This document shows, piece after piece, positions 1,718 through 58,982 of a DNA stretch of 64,000 bases. Each line of letters begins with the position of its first letter. Within the stretch, counting starts at the first letter, position 1. The notes under the pieces were generated by a model. It had not been told where the DNA came from. It did not search any database and was given only the letters and a program-made list of their open reading frames with translations. Made by a program: the position numbers and the translations under genes. This DNA is from an uncultured bacterium (GTDB lineage: Bacteria > Desulfobacterota > BSN033 > UBA1163), in contig CALIBK010000006.1 in NCBI GenBank assembly GCA_938045955.1, forward strand, positions 312 through 64,311. The letters run 5' to 3'.

Positions 1718-1933
1718 GAAAGAAACCCTATCACCTGGAGGATCGAGATGTCAACGAGTCTTTTTATATGCCTTAATCTTTCACTGAAGGGTGAAAATCC
1801 TTTCGGCCTGACAAGGGTGTTCCCGAAACCCTTAGGACGCAGATGAATTCGGTATAAAATGGATTCCTATATTTCAGAGTTGATTTTATAAAATTAAAAA
1901 GGTAAATTTCACAAAAATCAAAGGGGATAAAGA

Positions 1934-11014: not shown

Positions 11015-12316
11015 ATGAAAGGGGAACCAAAAATCACCGTAGGAATAACGGAGACGGATGAAATAAAAGGAATCCTGGAAGGAGAATTCTACGTCGAATC
11101 CCTGGGTCCTTTAACGGGTCCCTTCAGTGCCAGGATTGAAGAGGGAAAGATTCATATTTTTGATCATTCCCATAAGAGACTGGATTTTCCTCAAAGCATC
11201 CGGCTTGAGTCTCCTCGGGAGGCTATCTTTACCCTGATTTCCGTTCCCGTCGGGAAAGGCTTCCATTGGGAAAGAAGGGTCTCCTCAAGATTTCAGGGAA
11301 ATTTGATTCTCATGAGGACCTCCGGGAACAGGATGACCCTCATCAACGAGATCCCCCTCGAAGACTATCTTACCAGTGTGGTCGCTTCCGAGATGAACTC
11401 CTCTTTACCCTTAGAGTTTCTAAAGGCCCATGCAATGATGGCTCGAAGTTGGATCCTCTCCCTCATCGAGCGAAAGGATAGGGATCAAAAAATCCTGAGT
11501 AATAAACCTCCAATGAATGGAGAAGTCATACGCTGGTATTCCCATGAAAGTCATGAGCTTTTTGATGTCTGTGCGGAGGATCACTGTCAGCGATACCGGG
11601 GACTTCCAAAGGGAAAGTTTCATAGAATCAGGGAGGCGATTGAGGAGACTCGGGGGCAAGTCCTCTTGTATCAGGGAGAGATTTGTGATGCCCGGTATTC
11701 GAAGGCCTGTGGGGGAATTACAGAGAATTTTGAGACGGCCTGGGAGGAGCGATCGGTTCCCTATCTTCGATCCATTTCAGATGCTCCTTTCTCCTTTCCT
11801 CCCCTCCGAACAGAGGAAGAGGCTGAGCGATGGATCCTTTCGAAACCAGAAGCCTATTGCCATATCAAAGACCATAGCCTCGTTGAAAGAATTCTTCCTG
11901 AACTTGATCGTCAAACCAAAGATTTTTTTCGCTGGAAGGTGGAATATGACCAGGAAGAACTGGAGGAGATTCTTAGGGAGAAATCAGGATATGACTTCGG
12001 GAGACTCAAGGAAATCAATCCCCTTGAGCGGGGACCTTCGGGCAGGATTAAACGATTAAGGATTATGGGCTCTAAATTAAACCTGGTCGTTGGAAAAGAG
12101 CTTGAAATCAGGCGATGGCTTTCGAGAAGTCATCTTTTAAGCAGTGCCTTTACGATTAAAAGAGAAGGACCGAGATGGATTTTTTATGGGGCAGGCTGGG
12201 GTCATGGGGTGGGATTCTGTCAGATTGGTGCAGCCGCAATGTCTCTCAGAGGATTCTCAGCCGAAATGATTCTGAGGCACTATTTTCAGGGTGTGGAAAT
12301 AAAAAAAGTCTACTGA
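11015..12316 (+). CDS. SpoIID/LytB-domain protein (lytic-transglycosylase / amidase enhancer family)
   Basis: 433 aa with the SpoIID signature around YQGEICDARYSKACGGITENFETAWEE. Confidence 0.75.
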   Translation: MKGEPKITVGITETDEIKGILEGEFYVESLGPLTGPFSARIEEGKIHIFDHSHKRLDFPQSIRLESPREAIFTLISVPVGKGFHWERRVSSRFQGNLILMRTSGNRMTLINEIPLEDYLTSVVASEMNSSLPLEFLKAHAMMARSWILSLIERKDRDQKILSNKPPMNGEVIRWYSHESHELFDVCAEDHCQRYRGLPKGKFHRIREAIEETRGQVLLYQGEICDARYSKACGGITENFETAWEERSVPYLRSISDAPFSFPPLRTEEEAERWILSKPEAYCHIKDHSLVERILPELDRQTKDFFRWKVEYDQEELEEILREKSGYDFGRLKEINPLERGPSGRIKRLRIMGSKLNLVVGKELEIRRWLSRSHLLSSAFTIKREGPRWIFYGAGWGHGVGFCQIGAAAMSLRGFSAEMILRHYFQGVEIKKVY

Positions 12317-12317
12317 G

Positions 12318-12405
12318 AATAATCCCTCCGTGAAGGAGAAGATGATTTTAAAGCCGGAAAGGGGTATTTCCGAATCCCTTAGAATGCGGATTGATTTAAT
12401 ACTAA
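12318..12405 (-). repeat. Interspersed repeat family C, copy 1 (reverse orientation)
   Basis: About 80% identical over about 80 bp to 48597-48690 and 57709-57805. Shared core ATCCGCGTTCTAAGGGTTTCGGAAATACCCCTTTAGGCC. Confidence 0.7.
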
Positions 12406-12426
12406 TATAAACGCATTAAATCGGAT

Positions 12427-12550
12427 GAAATGAATGCTTATTCTTGTCATTCCCGCGCAGGCGGGAATCCAGTTTTTTCAAAATGTTTCTGGATTCCTGA
12501 TAACGCAGGAATGACGGTGACTGTAACTTTTTTAATTTCCCTTGTATTAA
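12427..12550 (+). repeat. Interspersed repeat family A, copy 1: MITE/REP-like element made of two mutually inverted hairpins (GTCATTCCCGCGCAGGCGGGAATCCAG ... CTGGATTCCTGATAACGCAGGAATGAC).
   Basis: About 88% identical over about 122 bp to 58039-58160. Translates into the well-known spurious SFPRxRESS / VIPAxxGIQ / FRRNDG peptides (ORF 12447-12659 minus contains VIPALSGIQ). Confidence 0.8.
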
Positions 12551-12727
12551 GGAGGGAAAACGGAACCATCTCACGTGGAAAAAAGGGTTCTGAGTAACAC
12601 GATTCAGGGTTAAGAATGTCTGGAACCATTTTAGGTTGTCTTTCTATGTGTTTCTCCAATACTCCTCTTGGGCTTATTTCATACCTACGAGTGAGGAGTA
12701 ACCACTGAGAAAATAAACCCTGGCGTC

Positions 12728-14014
12728 ATGGATCGATTAAAACGGAAAGCTCCCTCAAGAAACCCCTGGACCTGGGTTCCTTCCCTCTATCTGGCAGAAG
12801 GGATCCCTTACACGATGGCCATGATGGTCTCGGTGGTCCTTTATAAACGACTCGGTCTCTCCAATACCGAGATTGCTCTCTATACAAGCTGGCTCTATCT
12901 CCCCTGGGTCATCAAACCCCTCTGGAGCCCGATCGTGGATCTTCTGGTGAGGAAACGATTCTGGATTCTTTTGACGGAACTTCTTATCAGCCTCTCCTTT
13001 GCCTCCATTGCCTTTACCATTCCTACATCGAGATTTCTTCAATATACTTTAGCTTTTTTCTGGCTGATGGCCTTTAGCTCTGCGACCCATGATATTGCCG
13101 CCGACGGTTTTTATCTCCTGGGACTCTCTCAGGAACTTCAAGCCGCCTTCGTCGGGGTTCGAACTATCTTTTACCGGATCGCCACGATAACGACCAAAGG
13201 GGGTTTAATCCTCCTTGCAGGTTTTCTCGAACAAAGAGGACATTCCATTCCACAGGCCTGGTCGATGACCCTGTGGATCACAGCGATTCTTTTTGCTGCT
13301 CTTCTCCTCTATCATCTTTTTATACTTCCCTTTCCAAAGGAGGATAGATCTGCGAGACGAAATCCTCGCCAACCTTTCCTTTATGAATTTTCCCAAATCT
13401 TCTCTCTCTTCTTTCAGAAGAAAAACATTCTCTCTATCCTTGCCTTCTTTCTCTTTTTTCGTTTTGCTGAAACCCAAATTTTAAAAATCCTACCCCCTTT
13501 CCTTCTCGACCCGGCCTCGAAAGGAGGACTTGGACTCAGCACCACAGAAGTTGGAATCGCTTATGGCACCGTGGGGATGATCTCTTTAATGCTTGGGGGA
13601 CTGCTTGGAGGATACGCCATCTATCGAAAGGGTCTTAAATTCTGGATATGGATCATGGCCTGTGCGATGCATCTCCCAGATGTGGTCTATGTCTTCCTGT
13701 CTCAGATGCTACCCGGAAATTTCTATTTGATCAACTTCTGTGTCGCTCTGGAGCAGTTTGGTTATGGATTCGGGTTTACGGCTTACACGATGTTTATGAT
13801 TATGGTTTCCGAGGGTCCCTACCGGACCGTTCATTACGCTATCTCTACAGGGATTATGGCCTTAGGGATGATGCTCCCGGCCATGGTGAGTGGTTGGCTT
13901 CAGGAGCAGTTAGGGTATCAACACTATTTCCTTTGGGTCCTCATCGCCACGATTCCCGGCTTTATCGTGACAGGGTTGGTCAAGATTGATCCAGAATTTG
14001 GGAAGAAGAAATGA
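12728..14014 (+). CDS. ampG: AmpG-family MFS permease (muropeptide / anhydromuropeptide importer)
   Basis: 428 aa, 12-14 TM. N-terminal AmpG-like motif [11 protein letters not shown]...[20 protein letters not shown]. 4-bp overlap with murU. Confidence 0.7.
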
Positions 14015-15807: not shown

Positions 15808-17283
15808 ATGAAACCTCTTACGGCCATTATTCCATACGATCCAGATCCTTTATGGAATAAGACCCTCGATGCTCTCTCAGACTCTCCTCTGGCGGAGTTC
15901 ATCCTGATCTATCATTCGAAACCTTCTTCCATCCAAAACCCGAAAGTAAAGCTTCTTTTCACCCAAAACATCGGTTCAGGAGAAACTTTCCTTAAGATTC
16001 TAAATTCGATCCAAACCGACTATATCCTCTTTATCTCTGAACCCAGAATTCTTTCCTTTGAGCCCGGGGCCCTGGAGAGATTTATAGAGAAGGCTCGAGA
16101 AAACCGATCCGGGATCGTCTATTCAGATTTTTTTGAAAAAAAAGGAGAGAGAAAAATTTACCACCCCCTGAATGATTATCAGTTCGGCAGTGTGAGAGAC
16201 GATTTTGACTTTGGACCGATCCTCCTCCTTTTCACCCGGGCCATTAAAAAGGTATTAAAAAGATATGGCCTACTTTTAGAAACAGAGTACGGGACCCTTT
16301 ATGATCTGAGGCTCAAAATCTCAATGGATCATCCGATTGATCACTTAAAAGAGCCTCTCTATACGATCTCCCCAAAGGAAGCCATCTCCCGGGAGGAAAA
16401 ACTTTTTTCTTACCTCAACCCCAGGAATCGAAGGATACAGAAGGAACTGGAGAATATCTTCACGGATTACCTCAAAAAGATTGGAGCCTATATTCCTCCA
16501 GACGTTCTGAAGCAGGTCGGGCCGGATACCCTCTCCTATCCGGTGGAAGCCTCTGTGATCATCCCTGTTCGCAATCGAAAGGAAACCATAGGTGAGGCCG
16601 TGGAGAGTGCTTTCTCTCAAAAGACGGATTTCCCTTTCAATATCTTAGTGGTGGATAATCATTCAACGGATGGAACCACAACAGTCCTTTCCAATCTGAG
16701 CAAAAGGAATTCCCGGCTCCTTCATCTCATTCCAAAGAGAACAGATCTCGGGATCGGGGGTTGCTGGAATGAGGCCCTTTATCACCCTGCCTGTGGTCGT
16801 TATGCCATTCAACTGGATTCCGACGACCTTTATTCTGCCCCTTATACTCTTCAAACCATCGTTGATAAATTCAGAAGTGGAAAATTTGCAATGGTCATCG
16901 GTTCATATACTCTGGTGGATTCAAGGCTTAGAGAGATCCCGCCGGGCTTGGTCGATCACCGCGAATGGACAGATGAGAATGGTCATAATAATGCCTTAAG
17001 GGTCAATGGATTTGGAGCTCCAAGGGGCTTTGACACCTCCATTCTCCGAAGGATTGGCTTTCCTAATCTGAGCTATGGGGAGGATTATGCGGTAGGCCTG
17101 AGGATCTGCCGGGAATTCCGAATCGGTCGAATCTATGAAAATCTCTATCTCTGTCGAAGATGGTCAGGAAACAGTGATGCTAATCTTTCCGTAGAAGAGT
17201 TCAATGAGAAGGATGCTCTTAAGGATAAGATTCGAACCGATGAGATCACTGCTCGTCAGAAATTAAACCAATCTAAAGATTAA
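15808..17283 (+). CDS. Family-2 glycosyltransferase (degenerate N-terminal GT-A-like half plus canonical C-terminal GT2 domain)
   Basis: VIIPVRNRKETIGEAVESAFSQ ... ILVVDNHSTDGT and DSDD motifs. Confidence 0.7.
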   Translation: MKPLTAIIPYDPDPLWNKTLDALSDSPLAEFILIYHSKPSSIQNPKVKLLFTQNIGSGETFLKILNSIQTDYILFISEPRILSFEPGALERFIEKARENRSGIVYSDFFEKKGERKIYHPLNDYQFGSVRDDFDFGPILLLFTRAIKKVLKRYGLLLETEYGTLYDLRLKISMDHPIDHLKEPLYTISPKEAISREEKLFSYLNPRNRRIQKELENIFTDYLKKIGAYIPPDVLKQVGPDTLSYPVEASVIIPVRNRKETIGEAVESAFSQKTDFPFNILVVDNHSTDGTTTVLSNLSKRNSRLLHLIPKRTDLGIGGCWNEALYHPACGRYAIQLDSDDLYSAPYTLQTIVDKFRSGKFAMVIGSYTLVDSRLREIPPGLVDHREWTDENGHNNALRVNGFGAPRGFDTSILRRIGFPNLSYGEDYAVGLRICREFRIGRIYENLYLCRRWSGNSDANLSVEEFNEKDALKDKIRTDEITARQKLNQSKD

Positions 17284-21021: not shown

Positions 21022-21098
21022 CTGGATTCGGCTTCCGCAGGAATGACGACTACCACCCGATGAATGAAAATGTCATTCCCGTGAAAACAGGAATCGAG
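21022..21098. repeat. Rearranged or partial copy of repeat family A (CTGGATTCGGCTTCCGCAGGAATGAC ... GTCATTCCCGTGAAAACAGGAATC)
   Basis: Both hairpin modules of family A are present but in swapped order, immediately downstream of the HTH gene stop. Confidence 0.6.
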
Positions 21099-48596: not shown

Positions 48597-48690
48597 ATTT
48601 TATCCTGAATCCCTTCGCGTTCTCAGGGTTTCGGAAATACCCCTTTCAGGCCAAAATGGCTCCTCTTTCTATAGATTGCAATCAGGGATT
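48597..48690 (+). repeat. Interspersed repeat family C, copy 2
   Basis: See 12318-12405. The same core CCTGAATCCCTTCGCGTTCTCAGGGTTTCGGAAATACCCCTTTCAGGCCAAAATGG plus a shared TTTCTATAGATTGCAAT tail. Confidence 0.7.
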
Positions 48691-57708: not shown

Positions 57709-57805
57709 AACAGGCCTGAATCCATCCGCGTTCTAAGGGTTTAGAAATACCCCCTTAGGCCAAAATGAATCCACTCCTTCAGGAGGATTTCTATAATTAC
57801 AATTT
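57709..57805 (+). repeat. Interspersed repeat family C, copy 3
   Basis: See 12318-12405. Ends in TTTCTATAATTACAAT, containing a TATAAT hexamer. Confidence 0.7.
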
Positions 57806-58038
57806 TTGTATATATTTTACTAAATCTTTTTTCAATTATTCTCAACATAACTTATCCACATAAGATCTTCATTAAGTCCTCTAAGATAGGGGGTTGATGA
57901 TATGTGGAAGATTTGCCTCTTTTTTGAGGTGTTCAAATGACTTAAGCTTTTTAAGAGTCGGATTGGCATGTTTTCGTTGGTATCCACGGTCGATACAGAA
58001 TTCATTGAGGATGAAGGTTTTATCTTTTCGTATCTGGG

Positions 58039-58160
58039 GAAATGAATGCTTATTTTTCATTCCCTCGCAGTCGGGAATCCAGTCTTTTCAAAATGTTTCT
58101 GGATTCCTGCTTCCGCAGGAATGACGGCAACTATAACTTTTTTAATTTCGTTTGTATTAA
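58039..58160 (+). repeat. Interspersed repeat family A, copy 2
   Basis: About 88% identical to 12427-12550 with the same two hairpins. Its 3' end TTGTAT serves as the -35 for the downstream gene. Confidence 0.8.
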
Positions 58161-58181
58161 TTCCCTGGCAGGTGCTATAAT
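58152..58181 (+). promoter_or_regulatory. Promoter of the nucleotidyltransferase gene: TTGTAT-N18-TATAAT, with an extended TGcTATAAT. About 6-nt leader (near-leaderless mRNA).
   Basis: Hexamers and spacing read directly. The -35 comes from the repeat terminus. Confidence 0.5.
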
Positions 58182-58194
58182 TTTTAAGACCAAA

Positions 58195-58767
58195 ATGAAT
58201 TCTCAAAGGATATTCGAAACTATAAAAAAAACGGAGTCTCCTCTCAAAAGGCAGCTTCTCATGGTGGGGTTAATCACTAAACTTCTCGAAGAGAAGGGAA
58301 AGAAAGCTCCCATCATTATTGGCGGATGTGCTTTATCTTATTATTCAAGAGAAGTTTACTTTACTTCAGATATAGATTTGGCTTATTCGGATAGAGAGGC
58401 ACTCGATGAAATTATGAGAGAAATCGGTTTCCAAAAGAGGGGTCGATATTGGATCCAGGAAGAATTGAAAATGGCTGTCGAGGCGCCAGCTTCTCAACTG
58501 GGTGAGGAACAGGCTCCTGTAGAGATTGTCGAAGTTGGGGAAGGGCTTCAATGTATCCTCATTGGGATAGAAGATCTCATCATCGATCGTATGAATGCCT
58601 GTAAGCATTGGAAGTCAGAGATCGATTGTGAAATGGTAGAACTCCTGCTAAACCATTATTATAATGAAATTGATTGGCCCTATCTTGAAGGGAAAGCACT
58701 CAAACCAGAAAATGATATTTTCCAGGAACTTCGAGAAATAAAGAATAAGATTCAGGAGAGAAGATGA
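58195..58767 (+). CDS. Pol-beta-superfamily nucleotidyltransferase (AbiEii / DUF1814-like minimal NTase core plus a helical C-terminal domain)
   Basis: hGG-x13-DhD motif IIIGGCALSYYSREVYFTSDIDLAY. Start moved to MNSQRIF because the first 51 codons of ORF 58042 are repeat-encoded (FSFPRSRESS...FRRNDG). Confidence 0.6.
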   Translation: MNSQRIFETIKKTESPLKRQLLMVGLITKLLEEKGKKAPIIIGGCALSYYSREVYFTSDIDLAYSDREALDEIMREIGFQKRGRYWIQEELKMAVEAPASQLGEEQAPVEIVEVGEGLQCILIGIEDLIIDRMNACKHWKSEIDCEMVELLLNHYYNEIDWPYLEGKALKPENDIFQELREIKNKIQERR

Positions 58768-58982
58768 GGGTAAAGAAATACGAGGAAAGGTCACCGGTAG
58801 ATTTTCTTCTTCTCAGGGAGAAACTCGGACTGAAGAGATACCGAAAGACGGCCAAAAGAGATGAAGAGAAAAGGGAGATTCTCTTGGAACTCGGCTTAAA
58901 GAAAATAAAAGAGAAAGAAAAAGGCGACTTTATTCCACTTGGCTACAGAAGAAGAAAAGTTAAAATTTTATCTGAAGAATAA
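58764..58982 (+). CDS. Small basic / charged protein (72 aa) translationally coupled (ATGA overlap) to the nucleotidyltransferase
   Basis: ORF overlaps the upstream stop by 4 nt. Lys/Arg/Glu-rich with no recognisable domain. Confidence 0.4.
   Translation: MRVKKYEERSPVDFLLLREKLGLKRYRKTAKRDEEKREILLELGLKKIKEKEKGDFIPLGYRRRKVKILSEE

Follow-up and report, generated by a model that had tools for sequence, protein, structure and literature searches.

Head-to-head hairpins of the Neisseria Transformation Sequence type form the core of a miniature foldback element in an uncultured Thermodesulfobacteriota-like bacterium

What is the palindromic repeat that lies between genes at two distant places in a 64-kb stretch of DNA from an uncultured bacterium, and what kind of system would act on it? 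The stretch, which we call the window, consists of 64,000 nt of contig CALIBK010000006.1 and carries housekeeping genes of an uncultured Thermodesulfobacteriota/Syntrophaceae-like bacterium, including the dcw (division and cell wall) cluster and genes for LigA, a PAS kinase, and SpoIID. An earlier reading of the same DNA, made from its letters alone and referred to here as the sequence-only reading, had proposed a dispersed palindromic family resembling miniature inverted-repeat transposable elements (MITEs) or repetitive extragenic palindromic (REP) sequences and had left the element unnamed. In this study, we identified the hairpins of this element, family A, as repeats of the type known as the Neisseria Transformation Sequence (NTS) and the Ssn-related motif (SRM). 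Two such hairpins, placed head to head, form the core of a foldback element of about 150 nt with terminal inverted repeats (TIRs). We consider it probable, at roughly 70%, that this doublet element is a derivative of an NTS-ssnA-NTS unit and is acted on by an Ssn nuclease encoded in trans.

The window contains two copies of family A, designated copies A and B. A repeat search of the window aligned 12444-12550 with 58054-58160 at 89% identity without gaps, while MAFFT and global alignment of 12428-12552 with 58038-58162 gave 110 identical columns out of 127 (86.6%), with similarity dropping sharply on either side in the MAFFT alignment; the earlier estimate of about 88% falls between these figures. 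Each copy consists of two 27-nt units that are inverted with respect to each other and lie 16 nt apart, which agrees with the paired inverted hairpins described by the sequence-only reading, down to the outer halves (GTCATTCC/GGAATGAC) and the inner halves (GGAATCCAG/CTGGATTCC). Including a third locus at 21022-21098, there are six units at three loci in 64 kb, all of them intergenic, as had been claimed. The pattern GTCATTCC-N10-GGAATCNAG, with two or fewer mismatches, has five matches in the window compared with 0.06 +/- 0.24 in shuffled sequence, and none of 100 shuffles reached five. As single-stranded DNA, the 12428-12552 core of copy A folds at -22.2 kcal/mol (z = -5.2 on the plus strand and -4.7 on the minus strand), and copy B folds at -14.6 kcal/mol (z = -2.3). 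The units, spacer, and inverted-repeat arms of the two copies are as follows.

12446-12472, plus strand: NTS/SRM unit, left hairpin of copy A, GTCATTCCCGCGCAGGCGGGAATCCAG; 8-bp stem and GCAG loop; terminator-like on the plus strand
12473-12488: spacer of copy A, 16 nt, A/T-rich, TTTTTTCAAAATGTTT
12489-12515, minus strand: NTS-type unit, right hairpin of copy A, GTCATTCCTGCGTTATCAGGAATCCAG; inner stem weakened
12446-12472 and 12489-12515: inverted-repeat arms of copy A
58056-58082, plus strand: decayed NTS unit, left hairpin of copy B, TTCATTCCCTCGCAGTCGGGAATCCAG; TTC in place of GTC, with two pairs of the stem broken
58099-58125, minus strand: intact NTS-type unit, right hairpin of copy B, GTCATTCCTGCGGAAGCAGGAATCCAG; 8-bp stem and GGAA loop
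58057-58082 and 58099-58124: inverted-repeat arms of copy B

The sequence of copy B is identical in two further assemblies of the same strain. An independent short-read assembly of that strain (Logan ERR9287617) breaks in the doublet spacer of copy B, the first position of its contig L265 corresponding to window position 58101, as is expected of repeated or palindromic sequence.

A full-text literature search with the unit sequence identified the hairpins. Chenal et al. (Nat Commun 2025; PMC11893778) described the NTS as a 28-nt oriented hairpin, CGTCATTCCCGCGMAVGCGGGAATCYRG, which contains the older dRS3 repeat ATTCCC-N8-GGGAAT; one mismatch to the consensus was tolerated, and a second, degenerate motif was defined as the SRM. 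In that study SsnA, a small GIY-YIG protein (cd10448), bound and cut the NTS only when it was single-stranded DNA, and neither double-stranded DNA nor RNA was bound or cut. The cut falls a few bases to the 5' side of the hairpin; the C that immediately follows the palindrome contributes most to binding, the three bases that precede it contribute most to cleavage, and ssnA homologues and SRMs are found together across phyla (PMC11893778). The units in the window have this layout, with GTC followed by ATTCCCGCG-loop-CGCGGGAAT and then CCAG, an oriented palindrome with dRS3 inside it, and their type, GTCATTCC-stem/loop-GGAATCCAG, is the published NTS/SRM unit. Taken as a 28-mer, the unit at 12445-12472 on the plus strand has a single mismatch to the NTS consensus and matches the SRM pattern exactly, an identity that the sequence-only reading had missed. 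The unit at 58099-58126 on the minus strand has three mismatches, two of which form a compensatory pair, the stem having undergone a C-G to U-A change, and the decayed unit at 58055-58082 on the plus strand has four. Both the GTC and the 3' C are kept in four of the six units. By sequence and structure, the family-A hairpins are NTS/SRM-type repeats. The earlier suggestion of a protein-binding site was right in kind, as NTS/SRM hairpins are bound and cut by Ssn nucleases (PMC11893778), and by analogy the units in the window would be bound as well.

The doublet is the core of a larger element. A protein search with a 52-amino-acid (aa) open reading frame (ORF) spanning copy A returned a single match, a 58-aa "hypothetical protein," and the contig encoding it (JGI Ga0436465_0641319, here L266) carries a third family-A copy adjoining a DUF5615 gene. 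The ends of family A were set by a three-way alignment of copy A, copy B, and L266, from which it follows that copy A spans 12401-12551 and that copy B is truncated at its 5' end. The extent given earlier for copy A, 12427-12550, had located the repeat and fell short of its full length.

12401-12551, plus strand: family-A copy A, full length, 151 nt by three-way alignment; in order, left TIR, flank, NTS unit (plus), 16-nt spacer, NTS unit (minus), flank, right TIR
12401-12413, plus strand: left TIR of copy A, ACTAATATAAACG
12539-12551, plus strand: right TIR of copy A, CCCTTGTATTAAG
58038-58162, plus strand: family-A copy B; no left TIR, and left flank short by about 26 nt

On the right, the homology of all three copies stops at ...TTGTATTAA, giving a common right end of ...TTTGTATTAA, and on the left an extra stretch of about 26 nt is common to copy A and L266 and absent from copy B. 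The left TIR ACTAATATAAACG matches the reverse complement of the right ends of copy B and L266 (TTAATACAAACG) as well as the left end of L266 (ACTAATACATACG). The family-A TIR is therefore 13 nt long (ACTAATAYAWACG / CGTTTGTATTAAT), with ends that read ACTAATA(Y)A(W)ACG ... CGTTTGTATTAAT; in L266 it runs on imperfectly to about 24 nt, and the foldback of that whole element has a folding energy of -24.8 kcal/mol. The L266 copy is flanked by AACTCCGA and AACTCCAA, an 8-nt direct repeat with a 7/8 match. Within the element, the GTC sides of the two units, where cleavage would fall, point outward. Family A is a noncoding, MITE-like foldback element of about 150 nt that is bounded by TIRs and occurs in no fewer than two contigs unrelated to each other.

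The locus of copy A also records an insertion. The gap between the SpoIID gene and the major facilitator superfamily (MFS) gene is 18 to 19 nt in the contigs of four relatives (L122-L125), whose SpoIID proteins are 72 to 85% identical, versus 411 nt in the window. The difference corresponds to the following feature.

12320-12711, plus strand: lineage-specific insertion, 392 nt, carrying copy A

An 8-nt direct repeat, ACTGAGAA (12312-12319 and 12704-12711), delimits this block, and beyond the second of its occurrences the ancestral spacer GAAAATAAACC... survives intact. The block contains copy A, about 150 nt of unique DNA, and a copy of an unrelated repeat, X, described below, and it may be a composite mobile unit. 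The empty site in the relatives concerns the 392-nt block and not the family-A element alone. No NTS unit was found at the relatives' loci examined, and the insertion at locus A is lineage specific. For copy B, the dehydrogenase loci of relatives (L260-L263) are not syntenic upstream, so there is no empty site to compare. With a third copy in L266, relatives without the insertion, and units found across phyla, the family is dispersed in the way that the sequence-only reading had supposed. A public contig that is 99.7% identical to the window has the same elements, and 4 of its 58 differences from the window (12500, 12502, 12509, and 12519) fall in or near the right hairpin of copy A. We considered whether the element is hypervariable and dropped the idea, as copy B does not vary between strains and a coding region has a similar cluster of differences (16262-16279).

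Head-to-head doublets of this kind occur widely. When one genome per GTDB species was scanned with the pattern GGAATCCAG-N15-17-CTGGATTCC, at least 120 loci were found, with matches in Nitrospirota, Thermodesulfovibrionales, Delta-, Alpha-, Beta-, and Gammaproteobacteria, Patescibacteria, Planctomycetota, Chloroflexota, Acidobacteria, Binatia, and Methylomirabilota among others, and in most of the matches listed the flanks complete both hairpins. At least 120 further loci, in metagenomes, have doublets with a TTTTCAA spacer; none of those listed shares the family-A flanks. BLAST against PLSDB replicons found the doublet in Cupriavidus (as a full doublet), Neisseria gonorrhoeae (at least 40 places), Legionella, Azospirillum, sphingomonads, Photobacterium, and Aeromonas, nearly always unannotated. 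Fourteen viral or proviral IMG/VR contigs (L246-L259) also carry the head-to-head doublet.

The units show the mark of selection on their structure. When 27-mers were taken blindly beside a fixed GGAATCCAG, 129 of 246 began with GTCATTCC (at most one mismatch); among these 129, the inner stem pairs alternate between C-G, U-A, and G-C, and the loops are GNRA-like (GAAA, GAAG, GCAG, and similar). For 54 distinct units drawn from many phyla, pairing holds in 96.5% of cells, compared with 16 to 53% in slid controls. Double compensatory changes occur in 28 cells, at stem pairs 9-18, 10-17, and 11-16, a number reached by none of 500 shuffles. The NTS-type unit is under structural selection across phyla.

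Doublets from metagenomes (loci among L126-L245) sort into at least five further families of foldback, MITE-like elements, 130 to 170 nt long, each with its own TIRs and with the NTS doublet at the center.

F1: TIR GAGGCTCTTGCAAAAC; 143 nt; exact 4-bp duplications in 9 of 13 copies and 3/4 matches in 3 more
F2: TIR GAGAGCTTTGAA; 131 nt; 4- to 5-bp duplications
F3 and F5: TIR TAGAGTCTGT..ATAAAC; 137 to 148 nt; TA-like flanks
F4: TIR AGGCTGTGTCGCAAT; 139 nt; sits within palindromic flanks
L242, 1030-1172 and 1434-1576: example elements

The spacer motif TTTTCAA-N4-TT of copy A is seen again in several of these families, although its final TT was not demanded by the search. Next to other NTS-type units there are genes for GIY-YIG proteins: ORFs of this family (PF01541; E-values of 1e-15 to 1e-16 for the three ORFs tested) are found alongside or between units in L062, L074, L116, L177, and L216. 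L177 and L216 are arranged as unit (plus), GIY-YIG gene, unit (minus), with the same polarity as in the doublet.

The third locus of the window is a poorer relative of copies A and B and contains two units.

21022-21048, minus strand: degenerate NTS-type unit, CGTCATTCCTGCGGAAGCCGAATCCAG, as read from the sequence; one stem base deleted
21072-21098, plus strand: NTS-type unit, GTCATTCCCGTGAAAACAGGAATCGAG; one stem mismatch

Both units are degenerate, and they stand in the swapped, tail-to-tail order, 24 nt apart. A few flanking bases recall family A: the flank of the first unit resembles the right half of the element, and the second unit is preceded by GATGAATGAAAAT, which resembles the left flank. 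The fold of this locus is no better than that of shuffled sequences. The sequence-only reading had called it a rearranged or partial copy; both hairpin units are indeed there, and the 125-nt element is not shared.

What system, then, would act on such an element? Because the window encodes no Ssn nuclease, RAYT (REP-associated tyrosine transposase), or other transposase, any partner would have to act in trans. Because the doublet has the same geometry as the NTS(+)-ssnA-NTS(-) units found elsewhere, it is most simply seen as a miniature, gene-less derivative of such a unit. By analogy with the characterized enzymes, an Ssn nuclease encoded in trans would recognize the intact units as single-stranded DNA hairpins in this organism. 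In the mechanism that we propose, intact units would extrude as very stable hairpins with GNRA-like loops whenever the region becomes single-stranded, during lagging-strand replication, repair, or the entry of incoming DNA, and an Ssn nuclease whose gene lies at another place in the genome would then recognize the hairpins. Nicks or recombination hot spots would arise locally from cutting, which, on the model of REPINs (REP doublets forming hairpins) and their RAYTs, would also permit copying of the nonautonomous doublet element. Effects on neighboring genes, such as a terminator-like hairpin after the SpoIID gene and extended ORF calls, would be by-products. The element has spread: the window has it twice, an unrelated metagenome contig has it once, and in relatives the site is empty. 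Family A is now decaying neutrally, copy B being truncated with one dead unit and the locus at 21022-21098 being a wreck.

Several observations weigh against this account. Ssn activity has been demonstrated for the Neisseria and Wolbachia enzymes only (PMC11893778). No Ssn or GIY-YIG gene lies in the 64-kb window, and a GIY-YIG gene lies near the doublet in only 5 of about 265 fetched loci. Family A is known from only three copies, one of which, copy A, has no flanking duplication at its own ends. Moreover, a single nuclease cut in each strand is not enough on its own to account for TIRs and target-site duplications, which are hallmarks of DDE transposition.

This last point leads to the main rival explanation, in which a DDE-type transposase recognizes the TIRs of family A and its cousins and moves them as ordinary MITEs, with the NTS doublet as a passenger or a stabilizing foldback core. 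The TIRs are clear, target-site duplications of 4 to 5 bp accompany F1 and F2, 8-nt direct repeats surround both L266 (7/8 match) and the 392-nt insertion, and the families differ in their TIRs while having the same core. However, no autonomous partner with matching TIRs was found for F1 to F5; the long TIR pairs enclose only ordinary genes, among them a glycosyltransferase-like ORF and, by eye, ORFs resembling a MarC-type membrane protein and a release factor. At least six unrelated families sharing one conserved, covarying core would be hard to explain unless the core is functional, and many alphaproteobacterial doublets are without evident conserved flanks. We regard movement by a DDE transposase as unlikely, while taking it more seriously than any other alternative. 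An inverted doublet with a short spacer that forms one long hairpin and is intergenic and multicopy also answers to the definition of a REPIN, and such doublets are maintained in Escherichia coli and Pseudomonas by a RAYT, a Y1 HUH transposase. Here, the Pfam-annotated genes of the window include no Y1 transposase, RAYT, or other transposase, the unit is tied by experiment to another enzyme family, the GIY-YIG Ssn nucleases (PMC11893778), and the neighbors found at doublets are GIY-YIG genes, though RAYTs were not searched for in those loci. Maintenance by a RAYT is on these grounds highly improbable.

It is also very unlikely that the elements are kept as regulatory cassettes, whether as an intrinsic terminator behind SpoIID, as a DUF6036 promoter, or as a small RNA (sRNA). 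In each copy only the left unit scores as terminator-like, on the plus strand, with its hairpin followed by CCAGTTTTTT, but a co-oriented upstream gene (the SpoIID gene) is present for copy A only, leaving copy B with none to terminate, and the relatives function with their 18- to 19-nt gap. Element DNA does lie 32 nt upstream of the DUF6036 start; yet the -35 hexamer that copy B was said to donate, TTGTAT (58152-58157), matches TTGACA at 3 of 6 positions and is not called by a promoter scan, and the extended -10 TGcTATAAT (58173-58181) lies outside copy B. These results leave both the donated -35 and the proposed mobile promoter/terminator cassette unsupported, and the broader statement that the copies sit next to promoters or terminators is weak. 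The units are, in addition, visibly decaying. As for an sRNA, nothing in the window matches Rfam at gathering thresholds, and at E <= 1 there are only sub-threshold, hairpin-driven matches to FtrB, WsnRNA46, and miRNA families. FtrB (RF02748, Francisella sRNA B) scores 25.3 bits against a gathering threshold of 66 and WsnRNA46 (RF02625, Wolbachia) 21.8 bits against 65.3, which rules out membership in either family. The FtrB consensus does hold GuCauuCcCGCGuAGGCGgGaauC, an NTS unit that drives the match to 12425-12540, so NTS-type hairpins are embedded in annotated sRNAs elsewhere, and the annotated FtrB and WsnRNA46 sRNAs may be transcripts of NTS/SRM repeats. Finally, the two full copies could be a local duplication within one genome with no family behind it, and it is true that the window has only two, that the exact family-A spacer has 0 metagenome matches, and that no other fetched locus shares the outer flanks. 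This idea is already contradicted by the third copy, in an unrelated JGI contig and beside a different gene, DUF5615, and by the pan-bacterial distribution of the core unit, and we give it almost no weight.

The repeat has left traces in gene annotation. The peptides VIPALSGIQ and SFPRSRESS...FRRNDG reported by the sequence-only reading are present in the ORF translations, as is LDSRLRGND. The DUF6036 gene is publicly called as a 241-aa protein that starts inside copy B, while its Pfam domain fits a 190-aa version, and public small ORFs of 71 and 43 aa cover the locus at 21022-21098. The further claim that such spurious proteins pollute many proteomes holds insofar as public calls cross the units, and the search with the 52-aa ORF, which gave one protein, does not confirm it. 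Downstream of copy B, at 58195-58982, the DUF6036 nucleotidyltransferase-like gene is accompanied by an overlapping 72-aa ORF without a Pfam match; this region, which is nonsyntenic in relatives, is possibly a small accessory module resembling a toxin-antitoxin pair.

Repeat X, which lies within the 392-nt insertion, is a separate family of about 65 to 75 nt, unrelated to family A, with the core ATTTTGGCCTGAAAGGGGTATTTCCGAAACCCTGAGAACGCGAAGGGATTCAGG. It has four copies in the window, each upstream of a co-oriented gene.

1801-1863, plus strand: repeat X, upstream of an ORF at 1934
12325-12396, plus strand: repeat X, upstream of the MFS gene at 12728
48604-48666, minus strand: repeat X, upstream of mraZ
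57715-57786, minus strand: repeat X, upstream of a 2-hydroxyacid dehydrogenase gene

Repeat X may be a promoter-proximal element or part of the 5' untranslated region; the two copies searched against Rfam (12325-12396 and 57715-57786) gave no match. An impression that repeat X also adjoins the family-A copy in L266 was checked and rejected.

Family A can be compared with several known systems. The window units are like the published NTS/SRM in being 27- to 28-nt oriented hairpins with GTC 5' and C 3' of the palindrome and in being intergenic, multicopy, and cross-phylum (PMC11893778). They differ in forming tight head-to-head doublets inside a TIR-bounded foldback element of about 150 nt and in their host, an uncultured Thermodesulfobacteriota-like lineage with no ssnA in the window. 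The main text of PMC11893778 contains neither "REPIN," "MITE," nor "tandem" and no doublets, uses "inverted" for the hairpin itself only, and gave no hit for a Thermodesulfobacteriota-like host lineage in a text search. An ATTCC...GGAAT-type palindrome is present in all six window units and the exact dRS3 sequence ATTCCC-N8-GGGAAT in two of them (12449-12468 and 58059-58078). Neisserial intergenic mosaic elements (NIMEs) are long arrays of dRS3 with 50- to 150-bp RS elements between them and were regarded as Neisseria specific (Bentley et al. 2007, PMC1797815); the window has isolated doublets with spacers of 16 and 24 nt and no arrays, a different arrangement. Correia repeat-enclosed elements are, like family A, about 150 nt long, noncoding, and intergenic, with TIRs and insertion polymorphism between relatives, but there is no sequence similarity, and family A has an NTS doublet at its center and a target duplication in one copy only (7/8 of 8 nt). 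Short, noncoding, and bounded by TIRs, family A agrees with the structural part of the definition of a MITE. With REPs, bacterial interspersed mosaic elements, and the REPIN-RAYT system (Bertels & Rainey 2011; Nunvar 2010; Ton-Hoang 2012), it shares an inverted doublet that forms a single long hairpin, its nonautonomy, and a presumed single-copy nuclease partner in trans. It differs from that system in the family of the partner, GIY-YIG rather than Y1 HUH transposase, and in having no GTAG-type motif. A further difference may be that REPs are usually lineage specific, unlike the NTS core, which is conserved across phyla.

These results turn an anonymous REP-like repeat into a named, experimentally characterized motif, the NTS/SRM target of Ssn single-stranded DNA nucleases, and extend the range of that motif to an uncultured lineage resembling sulfate reducers. 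They also flag three public gene calls as artifacts of translating a repeat, and they predict an ssnA gene elsewhere in this genome and cleavage of two specified units. The doublet-centered architecture, which is a modest extension beyond the main text of the Ssn paper (PMC11893778), holds most of the interest, and the window's own copies, few and partly decayed, hold less; it bears on REPIN/RAYT-type replicators and on Ssn enzymes as tools for single-stranded DNA. A mobile-replicator role is raised only as a hypothesis in PMC11893778, whose main text is without these elements. In the boldest form of the argument, which we put forward tentatively and consider doubtful, head-to-head NTS doublets would be the conserved core of a cross-phylum superfamily of foldback MITEs of about 130 to 170 nt (family A and F1 to F5), gene-less derivatives of NTS(+)-ssnA-NTS(-) units, and Ssn nucleases with their hairpins would make up a REPIN/RAYT-like replicator or a new hairpin-dependent transposon. 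The presence of the doublet as the core of miniature elements with TIRs and target-site duplications in many phyla suggests, without amounting to proof, that NTS-Ssn pairs act as replicators, whether mobile or domesticated.

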